Below, one piece after another: positions 1-45,755 of a stretch of DNA of 45,755 nt (within the stretch, counting starts at the first letter, position 1; every line of letters begins with the position of its first letter). The stretch lies in IMG/VR virus record IMGVR_UViG_2703718845_000006. One strand, written 5' to 3'. The notes under the pieces were generated by a model. That model was not told the origin of the DNA, made no database searches, and worked only from the letters and a program-made list of their open reading frames with translations. This DNA is from a virus (lineage: Duplodnaviria > Heunggongvirae > Uroviricota > Caudoviricetes). The position numbers and the translations under genes were made by a program.

Positions 1-1629
1 TTGTCGCTACATGATAAATTATTAATGCATAACTTCGCATTAGCCAATAAAAAAAGCCCTGACTTCATATCTGAACTTCCTCAAATTGAACCTAAACCAT
101 ACAGCAATGGACATAAAATTAAATGGATAAACCACACACTTACTAGCACTGAAGTTACTCCCCCTGATAACCTGATTAAAATATGCATATTGATTGAGTC
201 AGGGGAAATTGCTATAACATCAGTAAGTGATATTGCCAATTTACTTGGAGTTCCTGCTGGCCAATTACTTTATATACTATATCATAAAAAAGATAATTAT
301 CGTACTTTTGAAATAGAAAAGAAGAATGGTAAAAAAAGAGTCATTAATGCTCCTTGTGGCGGTCTATCGATACTCCAAACGAGACTAAAGCCTGTTCTTG
401 AATATTTCTACAGGCCAAAGAAATCTGCTCATGGTTTTATAAAAGGAAAGAGCATCATTACTAATGCTGGGATGCATATTAAAAAAAATTTTGTCGTAAA
501 CATTGACCTAGAAAACTATTTCGAATCAATAAGTTTTGCTAGGGTTTATGGAATATTTAAAAGTAAACCTTTTAATTTTGCTCATCCAGCAGCTACTGTT
601 TTAGCTCAGTTATGTACTCACAATGGAAAATTACCTCAAGGTGCGTGTACATCGCCAATATTAGCAAATATTGCATCAGCTTCTCTAGACAAACAGCTCA
701 CCCAATTTGCAGGAAGAAAAAAAATATCTTATTCTAGGTATGCTGACGACATAACTTTTTCTTTCAATCAGAGAAATATTGATATAATCAAAAAAAACGA
801 CGACGGAAGTTATAGTCTTAGTGAAACTATAGACAATATTATTTCAAAAAATGGCTTTAAAATAAATTATGATAAATTTAGAGTTCAAACCAGAAATACA
901 AGACAAAGTGTTACTGGCTTAGTGGTTAATGATAAAGTTAACATTAACAGAAGATATATAAGAATTACACGTTCAATGATTCATAGATGGACAGATGATA
1001 AGCTAAAGTATGCACTTCTCTTTGCTACAGAAAAAGGATATCAGGCAAAGGATAATAACCACGCAATTCAAATTTTCCGAAATCATATTTATGGAAGGCT
1101 TAGCTTTATAAAAATGGTTAGAGGGAAAGACTATCCAGGATATTTAAAACTGATGTCATACATGAGTCATAACGATCCATTAAAAACCCAAGAAGGATTG
1201 CGAGCAATGAAAGAAACAGAAAACTTTGATGTTTTTATATGCCATGCAAGCGAAGACAAAAAAGGCATTGCAATTCCAATATATGACGAGTTAACTAAAC
1301 TTAAAATTTCAGCCTTCATAGATCATGTTGAGATAAAATGGGGCGACTCCTTAATTGAGAAAATAAATGCAGCACTAGTTAAATCAAAATATGTCATCGC
1401 TATTTTATCTGCTAATTCAGTCAATAAGGAATGGCCTCAAAAAGAATTAAGGGCAGTTTTAGCCAGCGAAATATCGAGTGGCGACGTAAAACTTTTGACC
1501 TTATTAAAAAAAGAAGACGAGGAGGTCGTAAACCTATCATTACCTTTACTTAGTGATAAGTATTATATGGTCTATGATAATAATCCTGAAGTAGTCGCCA
1601 ACAATATTAAATCACTCTTACAACGATAA
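1..1629 (+). CDS. Retron-type reverse transcriptase fused to a C-terminal TIR domain (RT-TIR); ORF is open to the window edge so the 5' end may be truncated
   Basis: RT motifs in translation: NAPCGGLSILQTRLKP, GFIKGKS..NIDLENYFESI, LPQGACTSPILANI, YADD at aa 247-250 (nt 739-750), retron-typical VTG at aa 304-306. C-terminal TIR-like segment FDVFICHASEDKK (aa 409-421) with W-x3-E (W478..E482). AT-rich compared with the flanking tail genes. Confidence 0.85.
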   Translation: MSLHDKLLMHNFALANKKSPDFISELPQIEPKPYSNGHKIKWINHTLTSTEVTPPDNLIKICILIESGEIAITSVSDIANLLGVPAGQLLYILYHKKDNYRTFEIEKKNGKKRVINAPCGGLSILQTRLKPVLEYFYRPKKSAHGFIKGKSIITNAGMHIKKNFVVNIDLENYFESISFARVYGIFKSKPFNFAHPAATVLAQLCTHNGKLPQGACTSPILANIASASLDKQLTQFAGRKKISYSRYADDITFSFNQRNIDIIKKNDDGSYSLSETIDNIISKNGFKINYDKFRVQTRNTRQSVTGLVVNDKVNINRRYIRITRSMIHRWTDDKLKYALLFATEKGYQAKDNNHAIQIFRNHIYGRLSFIKMVRGKDYPGYLKLMSYMSHNDPLKTQEGLRAMKETENFDVFICHASEDKKGIAIPIYDELTKLKISAFIDHVEIKWGDSLIEKINAALVKSKYVIAILSANSVNKEWPQKELRAVLASEISSGDVKLLTLLKKEDEEVVNLSLPLLSDKYYMVYDNNPEVVANNIKSLLQR

Positions 1630-1911
1630 TTCTCTCACAAAAGCAAATGTGCAGATTGATGCGTATTAAGTATTAATCTGTACATACAAAAAATCAATAA
1701 AATAATATATTTTTCATAACTTGTAGGTAACAACAATATATGTCGTAACGAATAGTTGGATAACCTCTATACCCTATTAATCAACCAATTAACTCTATGT
1801 AATCTCGCAGCCTCAAAACCCGACTATTGTTCTCTTAACAGTCAGTTCACGTTCCATTTCGGCCTGAGCCCCATAACATGGAAGAAAAAACGCCCCCAGT
1901 CAGTCCAGCTT

Positions 1912-2016
1912 TCAGACAATCAGTGTGTCACCTGCCGATAATATTCTGAGTAGTTTTTTCAGCCCAGGCCTTTCGGACTTTGTACCACTGATTTTATCTT
2001 CAAAATCAGCGCGCAT
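1912..2016 (-). pseudogene. Internal fragment of a serine recombinase (DNA invertase/resolvase), 34 codons, lacking the catalytic N-terminus and the C-terminal DNA-binding part
   Basis: Minus-strand translation MRADFEDKISGTKSERPGLKKLLRILSAGDTLIV* resembles the conserved FEDK-SG...RPGLK...GDTLVV block of Pin/Gin/Hin-type invertases (from memory); in-frame stops lie immediately upstream and the frame closes after DTLIV. Confidence 0.55.
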
Positions 2017-2073
2017 ACTTCGTAATCCAGCAAGCTCTTGTATATGACGTTATTATGGCTACAGCAGTAACGA

Positions 2074-2256
2074 TTATTCCATAACAGGTACTGTAGGCCA
2101 CTCAATATCAGGTGCAGTTGATGTATCAACACGGTTCAGCAACACCCGATACTTTTTCCAGGCTTCCAGCAACAAGGTTTCTTCCTCCGTTGCGATTTCC
2201 AGCTCAACAACAGTCTGAACGTACCGGGAACAGCCTCCTTCAGAGCTTGAAGGATA
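2074..2256 (-). pseudogene. tfa: Remnant of the tail-fibre assembly gene tfa (C-terminal ~42 codons only), in frame directly after the stf stop codon
   Basis: Minus-strand translation after the stf TGA reads ...[48 protein letters not shown], matching the C-terminus of lambda Tfa as I recall it; there is no start codon or N-terminal part. Confidence 0.65.
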
Positions 2257-5200
2257 TCAATGTTCGCTTCCTGTTAACTGCCGGACAAGTGCAACCAGTT
2301 CGCTTACCTGATTTTCCAGAGTGCTGATCCGGGTGCCTGCTGTTGCCAGATTTTGACGTAGCGTTGTGTTTTCCTCTTCCAGCGCGGTAACGCGATCATC
2401 TGTTTCACGGGCGACCTGAACAAGTAAACCCGTCACGGCGGCGTAGTCAACATTAAGATAGCGCGTTTCTTCGCGTAGCTTGTTGCCGTCAACGGTCGGA
2501 CCTTGCAACTCTTCACCATAATGAGTAAACGATCCCACAGCTTCTGGTATCGCCTCCATTACTTCCTGTGCAATAACGCCAGCATAAGGCAGGCCGTTTT
2601 CCTTGAGCGTGTAGGTGTAACCGTTCATTTTGCGGATTGCTTTCGTCGCGTCGCTGATAACGCGAATATCGTCTTTAAGGTCGCGGTCTGATGACTGATT
2701 CAGCGTTGTGCAATTAATAGCGCCATTTACATCAAACAACTGGCCTGCTGGTGTTCTTTGCGCATAAAACAGATACGCAGCAGACGTTGCAACCTCAAAA
2801 ACGTTTTGTCGATCACTTGACCCCCAGACCGCGATGCTAACTGGCAGTTCTGAATTACCTGAATTAAGTAAAGCAAAACGATTGCCAGTCCCTGTTTGTT
2901 TTCTAATTACTAAATCGGCAGTTGAGTTAACCTCATCTTTGTTGATGGTTAGCGCCTGCGCTGTAGCACCGTTAACAGTGCCACTTAGTAGTTGAACCGC
3001 TCCATCATCGCCATTTAACAGCACTTGAGCGCTGCTTCTGTGGTTTTTCAGGAACAACTTTTTGCCTGTGCTTTCTGATGTGCCTACCGACCACGCCGAA
3101 TTGGTTCCAGTGCTATCAACACCACGAACGGTACAATTCATGCTGCCATAATCTGACGTACTTCCAAGCACATCAATCCGCCCGCCACCTAATTTTGATG
3201 GAGTCGTCGAGGTTAACGACCTGACGGTTACATCCTGATTCCATCCGGAAACAACAACCTGACTCCACGCTGTCCAGTTTCCATTAACAACAAAGCGAAC
3301 GTATATACGTTTTGTGTCGCTGTTAATCAGCGTTTGCATGTTCGCATAATCTGAATCCCTAACCTTACGAGTCGATTCAACACGGAGCAAAAAGTTACCT
3401 GTTACGCCGTCAGGCTTGTTGGTGATATTTGCACCACCTGCAGAGGATGGACAAATATAGTATTTAACTGCCCCGGCATCTGACTTGATGATGGTCAGGT
3501 TGTTAAGATTAACCGTCTGGCCGTCAATGTTTTCCGGCTCGATGGCTCCTGCTATCCCGGCACTGAACGTAGCAACGGCTGAAAACGCTGTCGTACCTTT
3601 GAAAGCCAGTTGACCACCAATCGTTAATCCCTTGTCGAGTTTCGCTTGCGTGATCAATTTGCTGTTTTGTTTCTGATCAGGACTCTCACCAAAAGCCAGA
3701 TCCCCATTAGTATCAATTCCAAGATACTTTGGGTTCATGTTGTCTAACTTAAACCCAATGGACACATTTTCAGAAGAACCAGAACGCGTTAAAACCAACG
3801 GCGTGTGCTGTACTCCATAGATGCTGAGCGTAGTTGCCGATGAGTCAGTGTCGGTATTTGCAATCTCAATCGTTCTGCTTTTAATTTTATACGCTACTGT
3901 GAGATCACGGACTTCAACCCTCCCGTCGTGACGAACAACAAGATCCCCTCCTGATGTCCCCCCTGCTGTCTTTGCCCTGATGCGAACTTCGCCAAGCGAA
4001 TCAGTGTTAGGACCAGCATAGATTATGCCGCGCTCTGTGTTATCGCCAGTATAAAACCGCAAAGCGGTGACTCCACTGTCTGCCCGCAGGAAGACTGACG
4101 GTGTACCTTTTTTGATTGTCAAGTCACCGGTCATTGTATCGCCGGTTTTTTTTACCTGCGCATCGTTCGTTACGTTGCCAAGTCCAACATCCGATTTCGA
4201 CGGCTTGTTTGCCGAGCCGTATAGCTCATTGACGCTAAAAGTCCCGTTGTTAAGCCGGGCATCGTTGCCGGCATAGATCTTAATCTTCGCGGTTGAGTAG
4301 TCGATATTGATCGCTGACCACGTATCGCCGCACCGCGAGAATATACCAGAACCGTGGCTATAAATGGTCGCCGTGCTTCCGGTCGGCTTATCACCGCGCC
4401 AGAAATGACCACCTTTGTCACGCAGAGCTTTTAAGATCTCTACATCGCTCATCTTGCCGTTTGTTGATATCCCGCTACCGCCAAGACCGAAAGCGCCTGT
4501 AAGCATAGCATTAGAAAGACCCAAATCTGCTTTAGTCGGCTTGTTTACCTGGTCGTAAATCCTTACAACGTTGCCTTCAATATATCCAGAAGGCGCGGCG
4601 GTTTGCTTAACAAATCCGTCTGGAATGTATAATTCCGTGCGTGCCGTCTGCGCCAGTACCGCAACCTTTGCGCCGTTGATAAATGCGCACTGGAAGGCCC
4701 AAACCTCAATAAAGCCATCACCTTTAACCAGGCCGTAACGCATCTGGTTGTTATCGGTCAGCCCGGTTGACCCTAAGCGGCGTATACTCAGATGACGAGA
4801 AACATTATCCGCACTAAGCAAAGAAGGCAGACCGCGCGCCGAGATCTCGATAAAGTCAATGTTTCCGTAAGGGGAGCCGTAGTTACCAGCGTTAGTAACC
4901 ATTAGCGTTACATGGCAATTGTTGCTTCCGGGATCGGAAAGTTTCGCGATCTTTATGTAAAAAGACTCATTACCAGTAACAACGGGCCAATCGTATTGCG
5001 TCATCGGGCTGACGAGTCCCCCGACCTTGTCGAGATATTCTTTCGCCTTGTTCTCTGACGCTTTAGCGTTGGTTTCGCTGACCTTTGCTGCTGCCTCACT
5101 ATTTTTCGCGTTGGTTTCTGATTTTTTGGCTGCTGTCGCGGAGTTTGCCGATGCAGTTTGTGAGTCTGCTGCCGCCTGTGCGCTGTTATCCGCATTCGTC

Positions 5201-6033
5201 TCAGACGTTTTTGCGGCCTTCGCGGAATTTCCTGCTGCCGTTGCCGAGGAAGCTGCACTGCCGGCGCTCGAGGCAGCGCTCGTTTCTGATGATTTTGCCG
5301 CCACTTTTGAAGCCGACGCATCCCGGGCTGAGGTGGCAGCTTCTGACGCTTTCGTGGTCGCGGTGGATGCAGAAGTGGCCGCAGATTTTTGTGATGCTGC
5401 GGCATTCGTTTCTGACGTTTTCGCTGCACCGGCACTGGTGGCTGCCGCGCTTTTTGAAGACTCTGCGGCGGCAGCACTTTTTGATGCTTCAGTGGCCTTT
5501 GTTGATGCCGTTCCTGCGCTGGAAGACGCTGACTGAGCCGACGACGCGGCCTGTCCGGCTGACGTGCTGGCTGCACGTGCTGAGCCTGCAGCATCAGTCG
5601 CACGGGTTGCCGCCTCACGGGCTGATGTGCCGGCATCGCTGGCTGACTTCTTCGCGGCTGCTGTGTTCTGCGCCACTGCGGACGCGTTACGCGCCACCTC
5701 TTCCACCATCAGTTCAAAGCGGCGCAGTGCCTCCGGACGGGCATCATCCTCCGTCATGGCACCGAGAAAATCATTCAGCGTACCGGGTCGGGAATCTTCA
5801 TACACGGTGATGGTCCCGGCATGTGACGGCGGGAATCCTTCCACCAACAGAATAACGCTGTACTGACCGTACTCAACGTCCATGCTGTAACGCCCGGCTT
5901 CATCCGGATTTTCTGAGGCCACCGTGTTCACCACCACCGTGGTGCTGTTACGTTTTGCTTTCAGCTGGATTGTGCAGTTCTGTACCGGTTTACCTGCACC
6001 GTCTTTCAGTACACCTGAAATCTTTACTGCCAT
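2257..6033 (-). CDS. stf: Side tail fibre protein: lambda Stf-like N-terminus, Ala/Ser-rich repeat region, C-terminal intramolecular-chaperone (peptidase S74-like) domain
   Basis: N-terminus MAVKISGVLKDGAGKPVQNCTIQLKAKRNSTT matches lambda Stf; C-terminus DLKDDIRVISDATKAIRKMNGYTYTLKE...VDYAAVTGLLVQVARE is typical of the self-cleaving chaperone domain of tail fibres/endosialidases. Probable start is the ATG at 6033 rather than the GTG at 6039. Confidence 0.9.
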   Translation of the reverse strand: MAVKISGVLKDGAGKPVQNCTIQLKAKRNSTTVVVNTVASENPDEAGRYSMDVEYGQYSVILLVEGFPPSHAGTITVYEDSRPGTLNDFLGAMTEDDARPEALRRFELMVEEVARNASAVAQNTAAAKKSASDAGTSAREAATRATDAAGSARAASTSAGQAASSAQSASSSAGTASTKATEASKSAAAAESSKSAAATSAGAAKTSETNAAASQKSAATSASTATTKASEAATSARDASASKVAAKSSETSAASSAGSAASSATAAGNSAKAAKTSETNADNSAQAAADSQTASANSATAAKKSETNAKNSEAAAKVSETNAKASENKAKEYLDKVGGLVSPMTQYDWPVVTGNESFYIKIAKLSDPGSNNCHVTLMVTNAGNYGSPYGNIDFIEISARGLPSLLSADNVSRHLSIRRLGSTGLTDNNQMRYGLVKGDGFIEVWAFQCAFINGAKVAVLAQTARTELYIPDGFVKQTAAPSGYIEGNVVRIYDQVNKPTKADLGLSNAMLTGAFGLGGSGISTNGKMSDVEILKALRDKGGHFWRGDKPTGSTATIYSHGSGIFSRCGDTWSAINIDYSTAKIKIYAGNDARLNNGTFSVNELYGSANKPSKSDVGLGNVTNDAQVKKTGDTMTGDLTIKKGTPSVFLRADSGVTALRFYTGDNTERGIIYAGPNTDSLGEVRIRAKTAGGTSGGDLVVRHDGRVEVRDLTVAYKIKSRTIEIANTDTDSSATTLSIYGVQHTPLVLTRSGSSENVSIGFKLDNMNPKYLGIDTNGDLAFGESPDQKQNSKLITQAKLDKGLTIGGQLAFKGTTAFSAVATFSAGIAGAIEPENIDGQTVNLNNLTIIKSDAGAVKYYICPSSAGGANITNKPDGVTGNFLLRVESTRKVRDSDYANMQTLINSDTKRIYVRFVVNGNWTAWSQVVVSGWNQDVTVRSLTSTTPSKLGGGRIDVLGSTSDYGSMNCTVRGVDSTGTNSAWSVGTSESTGKKLFLKNHRSSAQVLLNGDDGAVQLLSGTVNGATAQALTINKDEVNSTADLVIRKQTGTGNRFALLNSGNSELPVSIAVWGSSDRQNVFEVATSAAYLFYAQRTPAGQLFDVNGAINCTTLNQSSDRDLKDDIRVISDATKAIRKMNGYTYTLKENGLPYAGVIAQEVMEAIPEAVGSFTHYGEELQGPTVDGNKLREETRYLNVDYAAVTGLLVQVARETDDRVTALEEENTTLRQNLATAGTRISTLENQVSELVALVRQLTGSEH
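5049..5712 (-). repeat. Low-complexity Ala/Ser/Thr-rich coding repeat inside stf (source of the spurious antisense ORFs)
   Basis: Repetitive translation (AAKTSETNA, SASSAGTAST, AAKKSETNAKNSE...); several overlapping ORFs on the opposite strand have no protein-like character. Confidence 0.6.
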
Positions 6034-6042
6034 ATTCACCCC

Positions 6043-28879: not shown

Positions 28880-30040
28880 ATGACTACACTCAAAGAACTC
28901 AAAGAAGAGCTTGCTCAGATACAAGATGAACACGCTAAGAACAGAAAAAAGGCTGAAATTGCAGCTTTAACCGCTTCCGCTGACAATGAAATCAGACTCG
29001 CTCAGAGAAACATTGGATACAATGTACGTGAGTGGACCGTTGAAGTCATTATTCAAAAGTATGGTGATAATATTGAAAATGACAAAAACGAGCTTTTTAT
29101 TCCAGATTATCAACGTGATTACAAGTGGGATACAAAAACAGCCTCTCGCTTTATAGAAAGTATTCTATTAGACTTTCCAATACCTTACCTTTACATTGCT
29201 GATGTATTTAATGAAGACCCTGAATTAGATGGTAGGGTAGAAATCATTGATGGTTCACAACGGATACGCTCTATTTATTATTTTTGGAACGATCAATTTG
29301 AGTTAAAGGATTTGAAAGAGCTTAAAAGTTTAGAAGGTTTCAAATTTTCAGATCTTTTAGCTAGCCGCCAAAGAAGATTTTTAAGAGCTTCACTAAGATT
29401 TATTGAGTTGAAAGGTGATGTTGAGGAACAACATAGAAGAGATTTATTTGAAAGGATCAACTCAGGTGTTAAAAGATTAGAAGCGATGGAAGTGAGGCAT
29501 GGCTCAGATGCTGCTACCTCAATGTTCTATAAAGATGTTGTGACCCCATGCTCAACAAACTCACTTTTTTCCCAACTAGCTCCATTATCAGACCGGAAAC
29601 GGTCGAATGGCGATCATCGTGAGTTAGTTTTGAGATTTTTTGCATATTTAAATGATTTAGAAAACTATAAGGGATTTGTCCGTCCCTTTATTGATAATTA
29701 TTTAAATGAACAAGCAGCAGCTGTGACTACTCAACAAGATGTTGATAATTTTAAACATGATTTTGAAATGATGCTTGCTTTTGTTGCTACCCATTTCCCT
29801 ATTGGCTTTAAAAAGACCGCAACAAGTAAAACCACCCCACGAGCCAGATACGAAGCCATTGCCGTGGGAACTGCACTTGCATTAAAAACTAACCCACAAC
29901 TCCAGAGTCCAGCCGTACCTGTAGGTGAATGGCTATTTGAAGAGGAATTTGAAACACTTGTTACTGCTGATAGTGCAAACAATACCAGCCAGCTAAAAAA
30001 CAGAATCTTTTACGTTAAAAATAAGTTGTTAGGGATTTAA
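28880..30040 (+). CDS. DUF262 (ParB-like nuclease/NTPase, GmrS-like) domain protein, 386 aa
   Basis: IPDYQRDYKW and DGSQR (aa 124-128, nt 29249-29263) match the DUF262 signature; AAGGAA RBS 8 nt before the ATG; AT-rich; no DUF1524/HNH-like C-terminal domain recognised. Confidence 0.85.
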   Translation: MTTLKELKEELAQIQDEHAKNRKKAEIAALTASADNEIRLAQRNIGYNVREWTVEVIIQKYGDNIENDKNELFIPDYQRDYKWDTKTASRFIESILLDFPIPYLYIADVFNEDPELDGRVEIIDGSQRIRSIYYFWNDQFELKDLKELKSLEGFKFSDLLASRQRRFLRASLRFIELKGDVEEQHRRDLFERINSGVKRLEAMEVRHGSDAATSMFYKDVVTPCSTNSLFSQLAPLSDRKRSNGDHRELVLRFFAYLNDLENYKGFVRPFIDNYLNEQAAAVTTQQDVDNFKHDFEMMLAFVATHFPIGFKKTATSKTTPRARYEAIAVGTALALKTNPQLQSPAVPVGEWLFEEEFETLVTADSANNTSQLKNRIFYVKNKLLGI

Positions 30041-30042
30041 AA

Positions 30043-30732
30043 ATGAGTCTAATTGATTTACGAGATGAATATGAAGAAAGAGCAAGAGACATTATGGAAC
30101 TGCTTTCTCTTGCATCATCTATAGAGATTCATACTCAGCAGTTAGATCCGCAAGCGCATCAAGATGAAATAGAATCTAATATCCTAAGGGTAAATATTTT
30201 AAAATCATCCGTTCATATGATGCTATATAATCAAGTTGAAAATACTGCCAGAGGTTGCATCGAGTCAATTTATGATCATTTACAAGATAATGAGGTGAAT
30301 TACGCATCACTCAGGGAGAAGCTTCAAGTAAATATATTACATAGAATTGTTTCAGATAATGAAACAGGGCAATCCCTTTATAAAAAGATAGGCACTGACA
30401 TTTCCAAAAGAATAATTTCAGCCTCATTGAATATTCGTAAAGAATTCAATGGTAATGTTTGCAAGCCTGTATTACACAAAATAACGCAGGCTTACGGAAT
30501 AACTATCGCAAACTCACCTGAATGTAGAAATGGTATTGACTTAGACTTGCTTAAGGATATCAGAAACGAACTCGCGCATGGAAGTACTAGCTTCTCTAAA
30601 AAGGGGCAAATTGACCCCTTAGAAGAAGTTAAGTCTAGAGCAGAGAGAGTTGATCTATATCTTCGTTTATTAATAAACTCAACTGAAGATTATATTATCT
30701 CTAACGGATATTTATCCCCTCAACATGCCTAA
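30043..30732 (+). CDS. HEPN-like protein (putative nuclease), 229 aa, translationally coupled to the DUF262 gene
   Basis: Starts 2 nt after the DUF262 stop; R-x4-H motif RNELAH at aa 174-179 (nt 30562-30579) in a predicted helical protein; 3' end overlaps the convergent methyltransferase gene by about 32 bp. Confidence 0.75.
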   Translation: MSLIDLRDEYEERARDIMELLSLASSIEIHTQQLDPQAHQDEIESNILRVNILKSSVHMMLYNQVENTARGCIESIYDHLQDNEVNYASLREKLQVNILHRIVSDNETGQSLYKKIGTDISKRIISASLNIRKEFNGNVCKPVLHKITQAYGITIANSPECRNGIDLDLLKDIRNELAHGSTSFSKKGQIDPLEEVKSRAERVDLYLRLLINSTEDYIISNGYLSPQHA

Positions 30733-31741
30733 CAAACGTTCTCCCTATTACTTGGCCAATTATAGGGGGAACAGCATTACCAATCATCGTTCCTAACTTT
30801 TGGAATGAAAAAGGCGTATTTTTTCCAATAAATTTATAATCCATAGGAAAAGATTGTAAAATAGCAGCTTCACGCAAAGTTATTGCTCTATTTTGCTCAG
30901 GATGTCCGAATCGCCCATTACCATATCCATAACATTGGGTAGTTATTGTAGGACTAGTATCGTCCCAAACCATCCGTCCATAAACACTTTTATAGGTAGC
31001 ACCTGAATGCTTTTTATGGCAATCCGCTCTAATTTCTTCAGGCCAATCATCCCACGTACCACCTGGTAAAGAGTGCAAGATTCGTTTAAGGTTAATATCC
31101 CTTAATTTAGGCGAACGATGCAATGGATCACTTTCGAGTTTCTCCCCTGCACCTATTTTTGGCAACTGACCAATAGCATCCTTTACTGTAACTTTACGGC
31201 TTACTTTTTTTTGATCAAGGCTGATTGGCCCCAATATGGACCCAATTAGAATTAATCTACGTCTATTTTGAGGCAAGCCATACTCGGAACATTTTACAAC
31301 GTCGTACCACAGATGATACCCAAGAGTCTTTAATACACTAACAAACTCTTCAAAAACCTTATGATTTCTAAGTTGAGGAACATTTTCCATAGTCACAAGC
31401 TCTGGCATGACATCACTTACAATCCTCTGAAACTCAGATAAAAGACGCCACTTTGTATCATCTTTTCTGCTATTTGGATTACGATACTTGGAAAACGGTT
31501 GGCAAGGGGCACAGCCTGCAAGTAATCTAATATTTCCTTCCTTGAACATAGCAGACACATCGCTGGATTGCAGTTCAGTAACTGACTGGTTAATGAACTT
31601 CGTTAAGGGATTATTGCTCTCAATAGCGAAACGGCAGGACTCATCAATATCAATGCCATGAGAAACTTCAATCCCGGCTTTTTTTAGCCCAAAAGTTAAG
31701 CCCCCTGCGCCACAAAAAATGTCTACTGCTTGAATGTTCAC
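30701..31741 (-). CDS. DNA (cytosine-5) methyltransferase
   Basis: Motif I FCGAGG, motif IV GCAPCQPFS (PCQ), motif VI ENV, motif VIII QNRRR, motif X GNAVPP; GTG start with GGAGA RBS; a TATAAT hexamer lies in the 80-bp gap after Q. Confidence 0.9.
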   Translation of the reverse strand: MNIQAVDIFCGAGGLTFGLKKAGIEVSHGIDIDESCRFAIESNNPLTKFINQSVTELQSSDVSAMFKEGNIRLLAGCAPCQPFSKYRNPNSRKDDTKWRLLSEFQRIVSDVMPELVTMENVPQLRNHKVFEEFVSVLKTLGYHLWYDVVKCSEYGLPQNRRRLILIGSILGPISLDQKKVSRKVTVKDAIGQLPKIGAGEKLESDPLHRSPKLRDINLKRILHSLPGGTWDDWPEEIRADCHKKHSGATYKSVYGRMVWDDTSPTITTQCYGYGNGRFGHPEQNRAITLREAAILQSFPMDYKFIGKNTPFSFQKLGTMIGNAVPPIIGQVIGRTFVRHVEGINIR

Positions 31742-36689: not shown

Positions 36690-36910
36690 GCTGCACCTCC
36701 GAGATGCTTCATGTTTTTTCCGGAGCGAAAGGTTATAAGCGGCATACTGACGCGGTAATTACGGCCCAGCGGTTCACAAATCACCTTCTGACATTCACGG
36801 TCCACCAGGCTAACACGTAGAACATGCCCTGCAGGTGTGGTGTACCACTGACCCGGACGAGGACAACGGAAAGTCTGATTGGTAAACCGTTTGAAAATAT
36901 TCCGGATCAT
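36686..36910 (-). CDS. Hypothetical small protein
   Basis: 74-aa ORF between the Rha-domain ORF and the replication gene; no recognised motif. Confidence 0.35.
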   Translation of the reverse strand: MIRNIFKRFTNQTFRCPRPGQWYTTPAGHVLRVSLVDRECQKVICEPLGRNYRVSMPLITFRSGKNMKHLGGAA

Positions 36911-38058
36911 TTGCGCCCCCTTACCTCTGAAGGGTTCAGCGACAAATTTATGAGGCAGGCCAGTGCCGAAGCATCATTAATATAGTCATACAAGCTAACA
37001 GCCAGCGGAGATTCGGCTTTTGCCAACATAGGATAAAGCTGCTGCAGCCAGACCTGATGAATTGATGAAATGTAGGAACAGAGAACGCTGGCGTTATGTG
37101 CAACGTCGCTCGGTACAGCGGGCTTTGAAAGCTGTTTCTCCATCTGGTTAAAGGCATTGATGTATGCCTCTTTGAACTGGGCAGCACGTTTACCCGTGAA
37201 ACCCATAGCAAGAAACGCAAAGCCGTCGCGGGTTATTTGATAGCAAGGTAGTTTGCGGCCTGTGCAATCGGTGTAATCACTCACCGAAAAATTGCGGGCA
37301 GTGAATGATGCGGAACATTCAAGCGTGCGGATCTTTTTCAGTACATCGTCATGACGTTTGGAGAAGAAGTTGGCAACAGCCAGGGATGAAGTAACAGCCT
37401 GACCATCAACGATGGCAATTTCAGGTTGAGTGAGGGTTGGGATCGTAGCCATGATGGCAGCCTCTTTGGTGATTTTTAATAACTCACCACCAAGGCTTTC
37501 CACGACCTTATTGGTGGTGAGACGTACAGGGGTGGAAATACCGGTCACCAAAGAACCCGGCCCAACCGAAGTTGGCCCTGCACGCCCCACCATAATTTGG
37601 GCGTAATGCTGCTCATGACACAAAAAAACCGCAAGAGCGCGGTTGTGCGCTTTGGTGAATTCCGGGTTTCCACGCCCGGCACCCGCTTTATAAGGTGCCT
37701 GAACAGTGTAACGTCCCGGAATGGCAGAATCAATGTGCTGGTGGTCCTTCACACTCAACAAAATCACGCCTGAATTTCCACAAAGGACTAAAGCATTCAT
37801 GCGGGTAGTCTTTGCGAAGATAGATAACGCGCTGTGTTTCTGGCTCCCAACGAATAACATGAACATAAAGTCCTCTTCCGTCACGAAACCAGCGGTTAAG
37901 TTCCTGCACAACTCGCCCCCCACAGTCAGGTAAAGTTCTCTGTGGTTACTTACAGCCAGGTGATTTGGTAATCTGCATTCATGCCGTAACAACAGGTGTG
38001 CAGCGACACTGACCACCAGCTGTTGCGACAAACGGTTATTTGCCGTTAAACTGTTCAT
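36907..38058 (-). CDS. Rha-family phage regulatory protein; the N-terminal ~200 codons of the ORF are unassigned and the true start is uncertain (possibly MATIPTLTQ near 37446)
   Basis: The C-terminal half has a Phage_pRha-like block (QAVTSSLAVANFFSKRHDDVLKKIRTL...GRKLPCYQITRDGFAFLAMGFTGKRAAQFKEAYINAFNQME). Confidence 0.6.
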   Translation of the reverse strand: MNSLTANNRLSQQLVVSVAAHLLLRHECRLPNHLAVSNHRELYLTVGGELCRNLTAGFVTEEDFMFMLFVGSQKHSALSIFAKTTRMNALVLCGNSGVILLSVKDHQHIDSAIPGRYTVQAPYKAGAGRGNPEFTKAHNRALAVFLCHEQHYAQIMVGRAGPTSVGPGSLVTGISTPVRLTTNKVVESLGGELLKITKEAAIMATIPTLTQPEIAIVDGQAVTSSLAVANFFSKRHDDVLKKIRTLECSASFTARNFSVSDYTDCTGRKLPCYQITRDGFAFLAMGFTGKRAAQFKEAYINAFNQMEKQLSKPAVPSDVAHNASVLCSYISSIHQVWLQQLYPMLAKAESPLAVSLYDYINDASALACLINLSLNPSEVRGRK

Positions 38059-43561: not shown

Positions 43562-44380
43562 CTACTCCACAAGCGGGATAAGTTTTTTACCTGTGTCTTC
43601 AAAGAATGAAAACGAAGACCAGCGGTAAGTATATAAAAAAGCCACTTTGCCTGCATGTTCTTCGATAGCTTTTTTTAAATATGACTTGCGTTTACTGACT
43701 TCTGGAAATTTATCCGAAAAGATAACTATTGCTCTTGATGATAGTCCACCACCATTCCGCATAAAGAGAGTAAACTCACTCAATCTAAGCATATTGAAAT
43801 TTGCACAATTCGCTACATCATTATCAAACTTAGCAACTATACTTTTTATTTTGTCATACAGACTGACCATATCCCTAAAAATATTTTCATCTGCCAACTG
43901 AATATTTCTTTCATTCAACTCTGTTATATATTTATTATCATCCACTATTCCAATAGGATATCGAGCATTTAAAACTATATCTCGAGACGCAACTTTCAAT
44001 AACTTCAGTTCGTCAACGGTTAATGGCAAACCTAAATCAACAGCCATACAATCAAGTTTATGCCCATAATTACAAAACTCATTTTCAATAGCTTTTTTTC
44101 TCGCACCGAGATTCATTAGAAGAATCGCTGACTTTAACAACATTTCAAAAGCATACCCCAACATAAGTCTGCTAGTTTGATCAGTTGCCGATGCGATATC
44201 GATGTATTCATGAACAATAGGAGATTTCTTACTTGCTGCCCGAAGCAATTTTTTGTTTCGCTCACCTTCACTTCTCAACAGCTTCGCAGATAAATACAGT
44301 TTTTTAGACTCTGTTAACCAAGCCTTTCGATCAAATATACCTTTCCCATTTTTCTGCGTGATTATCTCGCTCTGCATCAA
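43562..44380 (-). CDS. Hypothetical protein, 272 aa, AT-rich cargo gene between xis and int
   Basis: Clean AT-rich ORF, predicted mostly helical, no motif I can assign with confidence; flanked by AT-rich non-coding DNA. Confidence 0.6.
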   Translation of the reverse strand: MMQSEIITQKNGKGIFDRKAWLTESKKLYLSAKLLRSEGERNKKLLRAASKKSPIVHEYIDIASATDQTSRLMLGYAFEMLLKSAILLMNLGARKKAIENEFCNYGHKLDCMAVDLGLPLTVDELKLLKVASRDIVLNARYPIGIVDDNKYITELNERNIQLADENIFRDMVSLYDKIKSIVAKFDNDVANCANFNMLRLSEFTLFMRNGGGLSSRAIVIFSDKFPEVSKRKSYLKKAIEEHAGKVAFLYTYRWSSFSFFEDTGKKLIPLVE

Positions 44381-44531: not shown

Positions 44532-45755
44532 TCAGTTGGGGTCTGAGCTAGCACAAGTAATGATCGATTCAACCCTCTCCCACCACGCCTGGTAGGCTTT
44601 ACGCTGTTCTTCTAGATAATCGCTCTTGTCATAAACCTGCCAAACCCCTGGCAGTTTATGGCCGAGCATTATTTCTGCAATATGAGGAGCAGTAAGATCA
44701 GAAAAGTTTGTTCGTGCTGTTCGCCTCAAATCATGAAGAGACCAATGAGGGAATTGATACCCCAAACTCCGCCATGCGTACTGCATTAAATTGTAAGGCA
44801 GCGACTGCAATGATGTTCGACCAACGGGTTCCCTGCTTCCTTCCTTAGTAAAAAGCATATCGGAACCATTGTTCATAGAGATAGCGTTCTTTATAAGCTC
44901 CTCCACCGGTTCAATAATGGGCCTCTTTAGCGGTTCGCCTGTTATCTCCCCAGTCTTATGTCGTTCTGGTGGTACAGTCCATACCTTATTAATGAAATCA
45001 AAATCGTCCACCCTGGCAGTAATTAGCTCTGAACTACGGCAGCCAAAATGCAGCAATAGCTTAATGAAGGCCCGGTATTTAGGAACCATTCGAGAACCAT
45101 CGATCGCAGCATAAAGGATTTTAATTTCATCATGTGTCAGAAACCGTTTCTTCTGACCTTTACGGATATCCATATCTTTACCCGTGATATCCGACAGCGG
45201 GCGAGTTTCAATGAGCTTTCTCTTATACGCCCAGACATGGGCCTGCTTTGCGTTAATTAGCAATCGGTCTGCTATTGCTGGAGTCTTAGTGCTAAGAGGC
45301 TCCAGGACTTCTAACCAATCATGCAATGTAGCTGCATCGTGAGGGATATTCCCGATTTTAGAGAACAGGTGCAGCTCAAACGAGCGGAGTATCTGTTCAG
45401 AACCTTTTTTATTTTTTACACAATATGCTTCATACCAGGCACGGATCACAGACTCTACCGTCATGGCTTCAGTAGCTTTTCGTTTTTCAGCCTGCTTGAC
45501 AAATCGTGGATTACGGTTTGACTCAAGTTCACCACGGAGACGAATAACTTCTTCTCTGGCCTCTTTTAATCCAGTTGCCGGGTAAGTTCCGATATCAAGA
45601 CGCTCACCTTTCCCTGCCCATTGATAACGATATTGGAACACTACGCGACCTTTCGGTGATACTCTGACAGACAGACCATCACGATCGGATTTAACCAAAA
45701 CCTTATCACGTTCCTTTCCAACGACTGAACGCAACCACGCATCAGACAGCGCCAT
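44532..45755 (-). CDS. int: Tyrosine integrase, P4-like (N-terminal arm-binding DUF4102-like domain + catalytic domain)
   Basis: N-terminus MALSDAWLRSV..VFQYRYQWAGKGERLDIGTYP resembles P4-type integrases; catalytic region has R (HFGCRSSE), H-x-x-R (HDLRRTART) and a C-terminal Tyr region (WQVYDKSDY); the ATG is at the last base of the window. Confidence 0.9.
   Translation of the reverse strand: MALSDAWLRSVVGKERDKVLVKSDRDGLSVRVSPKGRVVFQYRYQWAGKGERLDIGTYPATGLKEAREEVIRLRGELESNRNPRFVKQAEKRKATEAMTVESVIRAWYEAYCVKNKKGSEQILRSFELHLFSKIGNIPHDAATLHDWLEVLEPLSTKTPAIADRLLINAKQAHVWAYKRKLIETRPLSDITGKDMDIRKGQKKRFLTHDEIKILYAAIDGSRMVPKYRAFIKLLLHFGCRSSELITARVDDFDFINKVWTVPPERHKTGEITGEPLKRPIIEPVEELIKNAISMNNGSDMLFTKEGSREPVGRTSLQSLPYNLMQYAWRSLGYQFPHWSLHDLRRTARTNFSDLTAPHIAEIMLGHKLPGVWQVYDKSDYLEEQRKAYQAWWERVESIITCASSDPN

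Follow-up and report, generated by a model that had tools for sequence, protein, structure and literature searches.

Retrons of type XII are retron reverse transcriptases (RTs) with a C-terminal TIR_2 domain and are placed in RT clade 8 (Mestre 2020, PMC7736814), where the type XII ncRNA is given as 'nd' (not determined). In the passages of PMC7736814 that cite Gao 2020, Retron-TIR is credited with anti-phage defence for which the fused domain is needed, and passages of PMC7736814 and PMC7699616 attribute the phage resistance of the family, with its dependence on RT activity, ncRNA and TIR domain, to the same work. Phage T5 is restricted by the retron-TIR of S. dysenteriae NCTC2966 (10.1101/2022.06.09.495361). 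No mechanistic or structural paper on any type XII retron was found in the literature search, and the PDB copy contained no RT-TIR structure. The closest solved structure is that of Eco2 (Ec67, type I-C1), which has a clade 8 RT and the same plan of one fusion protein plus an ncRNA, but its effector is a tRNA-cutting TOPRIM nuclease and not a TIR domain. The Eco2 effector is caged by msDNA and is activated through breakdown of this msDNA by DenB, a phage nuclease (PMC12916289). Type XI retrons have an RT of the same clade (PMC7736814), whereas their C-terminal domain is a trypsin-like serine protease. On the TIR side, the nearest sequence relatives are AbTIR (A. baumannii) and TcpB/BtpA (Brucella), which are stand-alone or coiled-coil proteins without polymerase fusion or msDNA control.

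The window, which is the whole stretch of DNA analysed here (45,755 nucleotides, IMG/VR record IMGVR_UViG_2703718845_000006), begins with an ORF at 1-1629. Judged from its sequence, the ORF is an intact copy of the catalogued and already known Retron-TIR, type XII. It is very probably the protein half of a two-part anti-phage retron of this type that travels as prophage cargo and acts by the mechanism proposed below. With the tested S. dysenteriae system it shares a retron RT that ends in a TIR_2 domain, an ncRNA located upstream and the lack of an accessory gene; nothing in the architecture differs, the likeness to the Shigella allele being one of architecture and family models. The following features were assigned (window positions).

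1..1629, + strand: type XII retron RT-TIR fusion, complete CDS (PADLOC, NCBIfam)
1..3, + strand: TTG, most likely the start codon (upstream AGGAG, in-frame TAG, homolog N-termini)
1..210, + strand: N-terminal extension of ~70 aa, beyond all family profiles, which begin at aa 70-74
211..1200, + strand: retron reverse transcriptase with fingers, palm and helical thumb region (RVT_1, PDB sequence matches, Foldseek)
463..477 (aa 155-159), + strand: NAGMH, the retron-specific NAxxH motif of region X (N155, A156 and H159 invariant in 29 sequences)
739..750 (aa 247-250), + strand: YADD polymerase active-site motif (Y247, A248, D249 and D250 invariant in 29 sequences)
910..918 (aa 304-306), + strand: VTG triplet, retron region Y in RT7 (V304, T305 and G306 invariant)
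1222..1626, + strand: TIR domain, putative effector (Pfam TIR_2 at aa 411-524, 4e-18; Pfam TIR, 8e-11)
1432..1446, + strand: WPQKE, i.e. W478-x3-E482, with the putative catalytic Glu at 1444-1446 (W478, P479 and E482 invariant)

The gene is a single plus-strand ORF of 542 codons that ends with a TAA stop at 1627-1629. The preliminary description of this DNA had been right to call the ORF at 1-1629, to note its AT-richness (GC 32.6% vs 50.5% in the remaining window) and to see it converge with the tail-fibre ORF (2257-6039, minus strand); no intrinsic terminator was found 3' of the gene. Its claim that the true start lies outside the window had to be dropped. Identical E. coli DNA has a TAG stop in frame 10-12 nt 5' of base 1 and AGGAG at 7-11 nt upstream, with a 6-nt spacing to the TTG at 1-3, and homolog N-termini of the form MSLH(D/N)KL (e.g. 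MSLHDKLL) line up with codon 1. This TTG is most likely the start codon, and the stop, the AGGAG and the homolog N-termini together place the whole CDS within the window. The cut that defines the window follows gene edges, which alone makes the ORF seem open at base 1: prophage contigs in IMG/VR begin at the identical base, and the other end of the window is the integrase start codon. In RefSeq, the protein is begun at ATG 25 and has 534 aa, against 542 aa from TTG; both forms are in public databases under the name "TIR domain-containing anti-phage reverse transcriptase", which is also the RefSeq name of the identical protein. Met at codon 9, the PGAP start, is missing from two homologs in the 29-sequence alignment.

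The identity and family of the gene were established by profile and structure searches. The PADLOC model RT-TIR_XII was matched over aa 70-541 (3.2e-187, 621 bits), the runners-up being RT-Protease_XI (404 bits across aa 72-419, the RT part) and RT-Toprim_I-C (357 bits), and the top 25 PADLOC matches were retron RT models without exception. The NCBIfam equivalog NF042941 (Retron_TIR_antiphage) scored 670.5 bits (cutoff 600) over profile positions 1-463 of 464, and Pfam RVT_1 covered aa 105-306 (3e-19). In the PDB sequence search, the RT part matched the RTs of Eco2/Ec67 (3.9e-41) and Ec86 (2.6e-33). The AlphaFold2 model of the protein had a pLDDT of 85.7, and Foldseek ranked the Eco2 entries 9lm3 and 9i2f first among its PDB matches (1.6e-27).

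The NAxxH and VTG motifs are defined in PMC7736814, and VTG (region Y) is said to steer the RT to its own msr. Both were observed here along with YxDD and an adjacent ncRNA closed by a1/a2 inverted repeats, the general marks of a retron. The TIR_2 domain is C-terminal to the RT, and the nearest RT, that of Eco2, is of clade 8, as type XII prescribes. By these profiles and motifs, the RT of the ORF belongs to the retron clade. Earlier inspection of the letters had read the gene as a retron-type RT of a classified anti-phage RT-TIR type, which type XII is according to the passages of PMC7736814 citing Gao 2020; YADD, VTG, FDVFICHASEDKK (aa 409-421) and W478/E482 were found at the positions then given and are invariant in 29 homologs.

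The TIR part had PDB sequence matches at ~1e-15 to AbTIR (7uwg, 8g83) and to Brucella TcpB/BtpA-type TIRs (4c7m, 4lzp, 4lqc). The W-x3-E arrangement proposed at the outset was recovered in the TIR_2 domain, where WPQKE aligned column for column with W..E of AbTIR (kdWtnyEl) and TcpB (kqWparEl). The TIR fold, (F/Y)D.FI.HASEDK, GDS and WxxxE are common to these proteins, and E482 corresponds to their motif Glu, which we take to be catalytic in AbTIR and TcpB. E482 itself is invariant in the 29-sequence alignment, the check that had been suggested for this residue. AbTIR and Brucella TcpB-type TIRs yield cADPR isomers. Thoeris was considered as an assignment and rejected (ThcB4 28 bits vs cutoff 220; no ThsA-like neighbour annotated).

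An ncRNA of ~140 nt was located in flanking DNA of identical E. coli loci, 28-167 nt 5' of window base 1, upstream and outside the window as anticipated. The a1/a2 inverted repeats that were to be sought there form a 13-bp stem (a1, L001 5834-5846; a2, L001 5961-5973), which is accompanied by an msr hairpin; the single-sequence fold had an MFE of -49 kcal/mol (z = -2.5). A promoter-like TTTACT-17-TATGAT has its 3' end 10 nt before a1, and the hexamers are identical in L094-L096. Since Rfam gave no retron RNA family on the upstream region, at the gathering threshold or at E<=10, a covariance model (R1) was built. Homolog upstream DNA was taken from IMG/VR and from exact-protein look-ups; the genome-contig search with the RT-TIR protein as sole query returned TIR-only relatives alone (L002-L008).

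R1 was matched in full length 20-55 nt before the start codon at 15/15 loci (46-100% protein identity) from Escherichia, Yersinia, Serratia, Salmonella, Citrobacter, Orbus, Aeromonas, Vibrio and Pseudoalteromonas, which answered the proposed covariance-model check. The ncRNA and its covariation were established from the alignment: 92.9% of cells were paired, with compensatory changes in 13/25 pairs, in a fit to R1 that is biased towards the modelled structure, and 8 compensatory pairs were already present in an independent MAFFT/RNAalifold alignment of 7 sequences. The observed pairing was equalled by 0/500 shuffles, and slid controls were 36-45% paired. A covariation-supported, sequence-derived type XII ncRNA consensus is thereby available for the gammaproteobacterial subgroup. 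Over the whole window, including 1630-2256, where no msr/msd had been noticed before, neither R1 nor Rfam gave a retron ncRNA. R1 had no match at the RT-TIR loci of ~37% identity (L100-L104, L009, L011, L014); at more distant RT-TIR loci, the upstream DNA has a1/a2-like inverted repeats of its own, 10-13 nt long and spaced 105-120 nt. R1 also matched weakly just 5' of the RTs from three further retrons (L020, L027, L082), at E 1e-4 to 0.1, which is too weak for an ncRNA type common to other retrons to be claimed.

In the proposed mechanism, one transcript would start at a promoter ~180-205 nt 5' of window base 1 and carry first the ncRNA, closed by the a1/a2 stem and containing the msr hairpin and a variable msd hairpin, and then the RT-TIR ORF. 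The RT would bind its own msr and prime from the 2'-OH of the branching G, and the msd would be copied into msDNA that stays protein-bound thereafter; in retrons generally, a 2'-5' bond at the branching G links msDNA to the RNA. As in Eco2, the msDNA-protein complex may keep the fused TIR effector inactive. Disturbance of the msDNA by an infecting phage would free the TIR domains, which could cleave NAD+ via Glu482, and the infected cell would be arrested or killed. The caging and NAD+ depletion steps are drawn by analogy because neither a type XII mechanism paper nor an RT-TIR structure was found. In this sense we infer that msDNA is made, that a phage triggers the system, that the TIR domain is an NADase and that infection is aborted, and killing by NAD+ depletion has the same standing in the literature found.

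A type XII retron could also act through a different output, the TIR domain making a nucleotide signal, such as a cADPR isomer, or feeding a host executioner, e.g. the (p)ppGpp/MazF pathway. Such a signalling role is possible since AbTIR and TcpB, the nearest sequence relatives of the TIR domain, are able to make cyclic ADPR isomers. The MazG-like (p)ppGpp pyrophosphatase Atd1 of phage origin lowered retron-TIR defence against T5 ~10-fold (10.1101/2022.06.09.495361), which points the same way. However, no conserved signal-reading partner gene stands beside RT-TIR in the homolog loci examined, and the working system consists of the retron and its fused domain in the passages of PMC7736814 that cite Gao 2020. 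Comparison of the E. coli locus with 8 homolog loci showed differing flanking genes, and the PADLOC class is 'single gene'; the varying neighbours fit a self-contained system of ncRNA plus one gene. A signalling output in place of bulk NAD+ depletion is on balance unlikely. An upstream DinI-like gene was tried as a retron partner and rejected, since RT-TIR homologs do not keep it as a neighbour.

The genomic context was established as well. A lambda-like E. coli prophage, inserted between prfC and yjjG, carries the RT-TIR gene as cargo at its tail-fibre end, whereas several enterobacterial RT-TIR homologs are found behind a P4-type primase. Gene plus ncRNA occurred at >=99% identity in 83/5426 complete E. 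coli genomes, the ncRNA accompanying the gene in all 83 gene-carrying genomes. The prophage copy might be a decaying, non-functional remnant like the pseudogenes that adjoin it at this prophage end, a recombinase with a frameshift and a tail-fibre-assembly gene that is truncated; disrupted copies do exist in other strains, with ISSen4 between the RT and TIR parts in three genomes and an IS1 end 22 nt 5' of the start in L091. Against decay, the 542-codon ORF is intact with every invariant catalytic residue present, the ncRNA, promoter-like site and SD are at least 99% identical across the 83 genomes, and the exact protein was found on >200 contigs, which makes a remnant very improbable.

The RT might instead come from the group II intron maturases or from the UG-class Abi/DRT enzymes and have a TIR domain by chance, a grouping the preliminary description had named as the alternative. 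The probability of this is negligible: Pfam alone reports a generic RVT_1, and there are weak matches to group II RT TIGR04416 (64.2 bits) and Drt2 (34.6 bits), but these scores are far under the curated cutoffs of 300 and 390, retron profiles reach 160-620 bits (RT-TIR_XII 621 bits), the retron-specific NAxxH and VTG are invariant, a covarying a1/a2 ncRNA lies upstream, Rfam gave no group II intron RNA in the window and flank around the ORF, and in Foldseek the retron RTs (1e-27 to 1e-13) outranked group II RTs (~1e-12), with Eco2, Ec86 and Eco7 well above the latter.

Within type XII, the gammaproteobacterial subgroup, which includes this gene, might have features undescribed for any retron, namely an N-terminal module, ncRNA motifs and a branch site without an invariant G, although this is considered unlikely. 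The N-terminal extension is kept in gammaproteobacterial RT-TIR homologs and missing from more distant ones in the 29-sequence alignment. AlphaFold2 predicted a folded module (pLDDT 77-86) with a helix at 3-14, a beta-hairpin at 32-43 and a helix at 55-67. Eco2 is without this ~60-aa N-terminal extension, its residue 12 pairing with residue 71 here. The strictly conserved single-stranded motifs of the ncRNA are UUAAAU after a1, the GUUGUUUCGC loop and GCGYAARGUGAUUGGG before a2. An invariant G at the inner end of a1, the expected branch site, was sought by conservation and none was found; the msDNA boundaries, sought in the same way, did not emerge either. Were the N-terminal module to sense the phage or to clamp the msDNA, and were priming non-canonical, the subgroup would have a distinct DNA gating of a TIR NADase.

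The chief value of the analysis lies in correct annotation: a prophage bears a retron-TIR, a putative abortive-infection system, as cargo at its tail-fibre end. When a prophage caller cuts at gene edges, the retron ncRNA and promoter are lost, and a clone of such a window would be non-functional unless at least about 210 nt of upstream DNA were added. The subgroup ncRNA consensus fills the 'nd' gap in the 2020 retron classification and could aid msDNA, structural or genome-editing work on type XII retrons. Elsewhere the same prophage has one or more additional defence-type modules, and with the retron-TIR and these the lysogen would therefore be protected against other phages. An exact att repeat of at least 12 nt was sought at the prophage ends without result, and an imperfect ~21-nt repeat, TTATGTACAAnCATATGTACA, is present at both ends.

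The locus at the beginning of the window is very probably a type XII retron defence system. RT-TIR, a retron reverse transcriptase (RT) with a fused C-terminal TIR domain, is encoded by a single uninterrupted frame, and the motifs quoted in the preliminary description (YADD, VTG, FDVFICHASEDKK, and W478/E482) were all found at the positions reported there. These motifs were invariant in an alignment with 28 homologs (39–83% identity), as was a second retron-specific motif, N155-A156-x-x-H159 (retron-specific motif definitions: PMC7736814).

Features of the RT-TIR gene and its product
Window 1–1629, plus strand: RT-TIR gene, 542 codons, stop TAA
aa 105–306: RVT_1, reverse transcriptase (Pfam, 3e-19)
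aa 247–250: YADD
aa 304–306: VTG
aa 409–421: FDVFICHASEDKK
aa 411–524: TIR_2, TIR domain (Pfam, 4e-18)
W478 and E482: WxxxE motif of the TIR domain

The top PADLOC model was RT-TIR_XII (3.2e-187, 621 bits, aa 70–541), followed by RT-Protease_XI (404 bits) and RT-Toprim_I-C (357 bits), which both cover the RT part only. For NF042941, the NCBIfam equivalog named "TIR domain-containing anti-phage reverse transcriptase", the score was 670.5 bits, above the curated cutoff of 600. A group II intron RT (model score 64, cutoff 300) and Drt2 (score 35, cutoff 390) were rejected. In a PDB sequence search, the N-terminal two thirds matched the RTs of retrons Ec67/Eco2 (3.9e-41) and Ec86 (2.6e-33), the C-terminus matched AbTIR and Brucella TcpB-type TIR domains (~1e-15), and no RT-TIR structure was found among the PDB entries. 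Foldseek matches to the AlphaFold2 model of RT-TIR (pLDDT 85.7) were headed by Eco2 (1.6e-27), then other retron RTs, with group II RTs far behind (~1e-12). W478 and E482 fell in the same alignment columns as the W and E of WxxxE in AbTIR and TcpB. By family scores, structure ranking, and WxxxE alignment, the RT is therefore of the retron type and does not group with group II or Abi RTs, and the TIR domain has the conserved Glu. The system is already known: RefSeq holds the protein under a functional name, two dedicated family models are passed, and the retron type has been classified since 2020, with an experimental test in a close host. For the type XII family the locus brings no surprises; the preliminary identification was correct except on one point of fact, where the start codon lies.

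The true start had been placed outside the window. E. coli chromosomes carry the window DNA with ~100% identity. One of these is L001, whose position 6001 corresponds to window base 1; there the sequence reads CCGA TAG GAG TTG GTT up to base 1 and TTG TCG CTA CAT GAT from there on. An in-frame TAG lies 10–12 nt upstream of base 1, and AGGAG is found 6 nt ahead of the TTG at bases 1–3. The MSLH(D/N)K N-termini of Erwinia, Providencia, Edwardsiella, and Citrobacter homologs align to codon 1, and two of these homologs have Leu or Phe at Met9, the E. coli start chosen by PGAP. The upstream TAG, AGGAG, and homolog N-termini contradict the earlier placement, and the window does contain the start codon. 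Both 534-aa and 542-aa versions of RT-TIR are present in public databases. The impression of an open frame at the first base comes from the trimming of the window to gene boundaries. Four prophage contigs in IMG/VR (L089, L090, L092, and L093) also begin exactly at base 1, and at its other end the window stops with the integrase start codon (integrase at 44532–45755, minus strand). The real prophage ends, together with the att-like repeat, a DinI-like gene, and the promoter and ncRNA of the retron, lie beyond the window. In practical terms, the window comes without the RNA half of the retron system.

The ncRNA was located upstream of the window, as had been predicted, in L001 at 167 to 28 nt before base 1. 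The stem of its closing inverted repeats surrounds an msr hairpin (GAGGUUGUUUCGCCUC) and, at the centre, a hairpin region that is variable.

Closing repeats of the ncRNA
L001 5834–5846: a1, 13-bp stem with a2
L001 5961–5973: a2, 13-bp stem with a1

The ncRNA had an MFE of −49 kcal/mol (z = −2.5). When seven enterobacterial loci were aligned with MAFFT, 8 of the 25 RNAalifold pairs showed compensatory changes (for example, CGGCUCUGCC/GGCAGAGCCG vs CGGCUCCACC/GGUGGAGCCG), and this alignment served to build the covariance model R1. R1 had no match on either strand of the window, and the earlier finding of no retron RNA in 1630–2256 held. Each of the 15 RT-TIR loci for which upstream DNA was available gave a full-length match that ended 20–55 nt before the start codon (46–100% protein identity; Escherichia, Yersinia, Serratia, Salmonella, Citrobacter, Orbus, Aeromonas, Vibrio, and Pseudoalteromonas). 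Across these loci, 92.9% of cells were paired and 13 of the 25 pairs had double changes; none of 500 shuffles reached these values, and pairing fell to 36–45% when the partner columns were slid. As an alignment-free check, the closing stem was present in the MFE fold of each sequence on its own. RT-TIR loci at ~37% identity had different inverted repeats (10–13 nt, spaced 105–120 nt) in the same place. An invariant G at the inner end of a1 was not found, hence no branch point is assignable, and the msd hairpin was too variable for alignment. Upstream of a1, with a gap of 10 nt, is a promoter-like site (TTTACT-17-TATGAT), with identical hexamers in three comparison loci (L094–L096). The 251-nt segment comprising promoter, ncRNA, and start was at least 99% identical in 83 of 5426 complete E. 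coli genomes, the same 83 that carry the gene. Rfam has no family for the upstream ncRNA, which is without annotation in RefSeq. The type XII ncRNA is given as "nd" (not determined) in Mestre 2020 (PMC7736814), and the covariation-supported consensus for the gammaproteobacterial subgroup is a modest new addition.

The prophage is inserted between prfC and yjjG, with the gene order prfC, DinI-like gene, ncRNA, RT-TIR, gene remnants, tail fibre ... integrase, yjjG. An imperfect ~21-nt repeat (TTATGTACAAnCATATGTACA) is found at both prophage ends, which puts the entire retron as well as the DinI-like gene within the prophage. As described earlier, the RT-TIR gene is AT-rich (GC 32.6% vs 50.5% in the remaining window) and convergent with the tail-fibre gene.

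Features downstream of RT-TIR
1813–2043, minus strand: frameshifted Pin/Hin-type recombinase remnant (RefSeq annotation of identical DNA)
2074–2208, minus strand: truncated tail-fibre-assembly gene fragment (RefSeq annotation of identical DNA)
~2117–2300, minus strand: partial Rfam IS009 match (88.6 bits, under the gathering score of 117)
2257–6039, minus strand: tail-fibre ORF

The debris at 1630–2300 looks like a relic of an invertible tail-fibre switch. RT-TIR homologs elsewhere have unrelated neighbours, so the DinI-like gene does not belong to the system, and the retron acts like a piece of mobile defence cargo. In Yersinia, Serratia, Salmonella, and Citrobacter (L169, L170, L173, and L174), a P4-type primase (Zn_Ribbon_Prim, Toprim_3, and D5_N domains) immediately precedes RT-TIR and its ncRNA, a mobile-element setting unlike the present lambda-like prophage. 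In three E. coli genomes (NZ_AP023230.2, NZ_AP023219.2, and NZ_AP023433.1), the gene is divided by ISSen4 into one ORF for the RT and another for TIR. In contig L091 (1–82), an element that we take to be an IS1 end lies 22 nt upstream of the RT-TIR start, between gene and ncRNA. Such insertions may reflect counter-selection of a costly system.

Judged from sequence, the RT is intact, with all catalytic and retron-specific residues, a cognate covarying ncRNA stands under a promoter-like site, and the fused TIR domain keeps its conserved Glu. Type XII is defined by the RT-TIR fusion (PMC7736814). Retron-TIR gives defence and needs the fused domain, according to Gao et al. 2020 as cited in PMC7736814, and a commentary on that study states that msDNA synthesis and structure are both required (PMC7699616). 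Eco2, the nearest solved relative, is a trimer scaffolded by msDNA with the effector caged, and phage nuclease degradation of the msDNA leads to release (PMC12916289). In RT-TIR, the RT would synthesise msDNA, and the msDNA-protein complex would hold the TIR domains apart; upon phage-induced damage or sequestration of the msDNA, these would assemble and cleave NAD+ via E482, aborting infection. NAD+ depletion specifically is somewhat favoured. The main rival is that the TIR product acts in signalling or through a host executioner. In favour of this rival, the TIR relatives are AbTIR-like, and T5, which is restricted by the Shigella dysenteriae NCTC2966 system, is partly rescued by a phage (p)ppGpp pyrophosphatase (10.1101/2022.06.09.495361); against it, a conserved partner gene is absent. 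The literature searched yielded no study of structure or mechanism for type XII retrons.

The ~70-aa N-terminal extension (window 1–210, aa 1–70) falls outside every family profile. AlphaFold2 predicted helix, beta-hairpin, and helix (pLDDT 77–86). It was found in gammaproteobacterial homologs, whereas more distant RT-TIR proteins and Eco2 are without it; noting this apparently folded extension is a further modest addition.

The same prophage has a second defence-type module (28880–31741), adjoined by a methyltransferase gene, and two Rfam matches that fall within the span of an Ash and Rha domain ORF.

Other features of the prophage
28880–30040, plus strand: GmrSD_N/DUF262 protein (Pfam 5.8e-26; PADLOC NsnA 5.9e-45, PD-T4-2_A 4.6e-27)
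30043–30732, plus strand: HEPN_MAE_28990 protein (2.9e-17)
30701–31741, minus strand: C5 cytosine DNA methyltransferase
36907–38058, minus strand: Ash and Rha domain ORF
37510–37597, minus strand: C4 antisense RNA (Rfam 83.6 bits, above gathering score)
37622–37698, minus strand: isrK Hfq-binding RNA (Rfam 67 bits, above gathering score)

At the position of dsr1, the window has an unannotated 272-aa ORF instead (43562–44380, minus strand), with no Pfam or PADLOC match. E. coli F5 (L178 3545–7372), with the same prfC/yjjG prophage type, carries this anti-phage sirtuin gene adjoining the integrase and retron-TIR at the opposite end.
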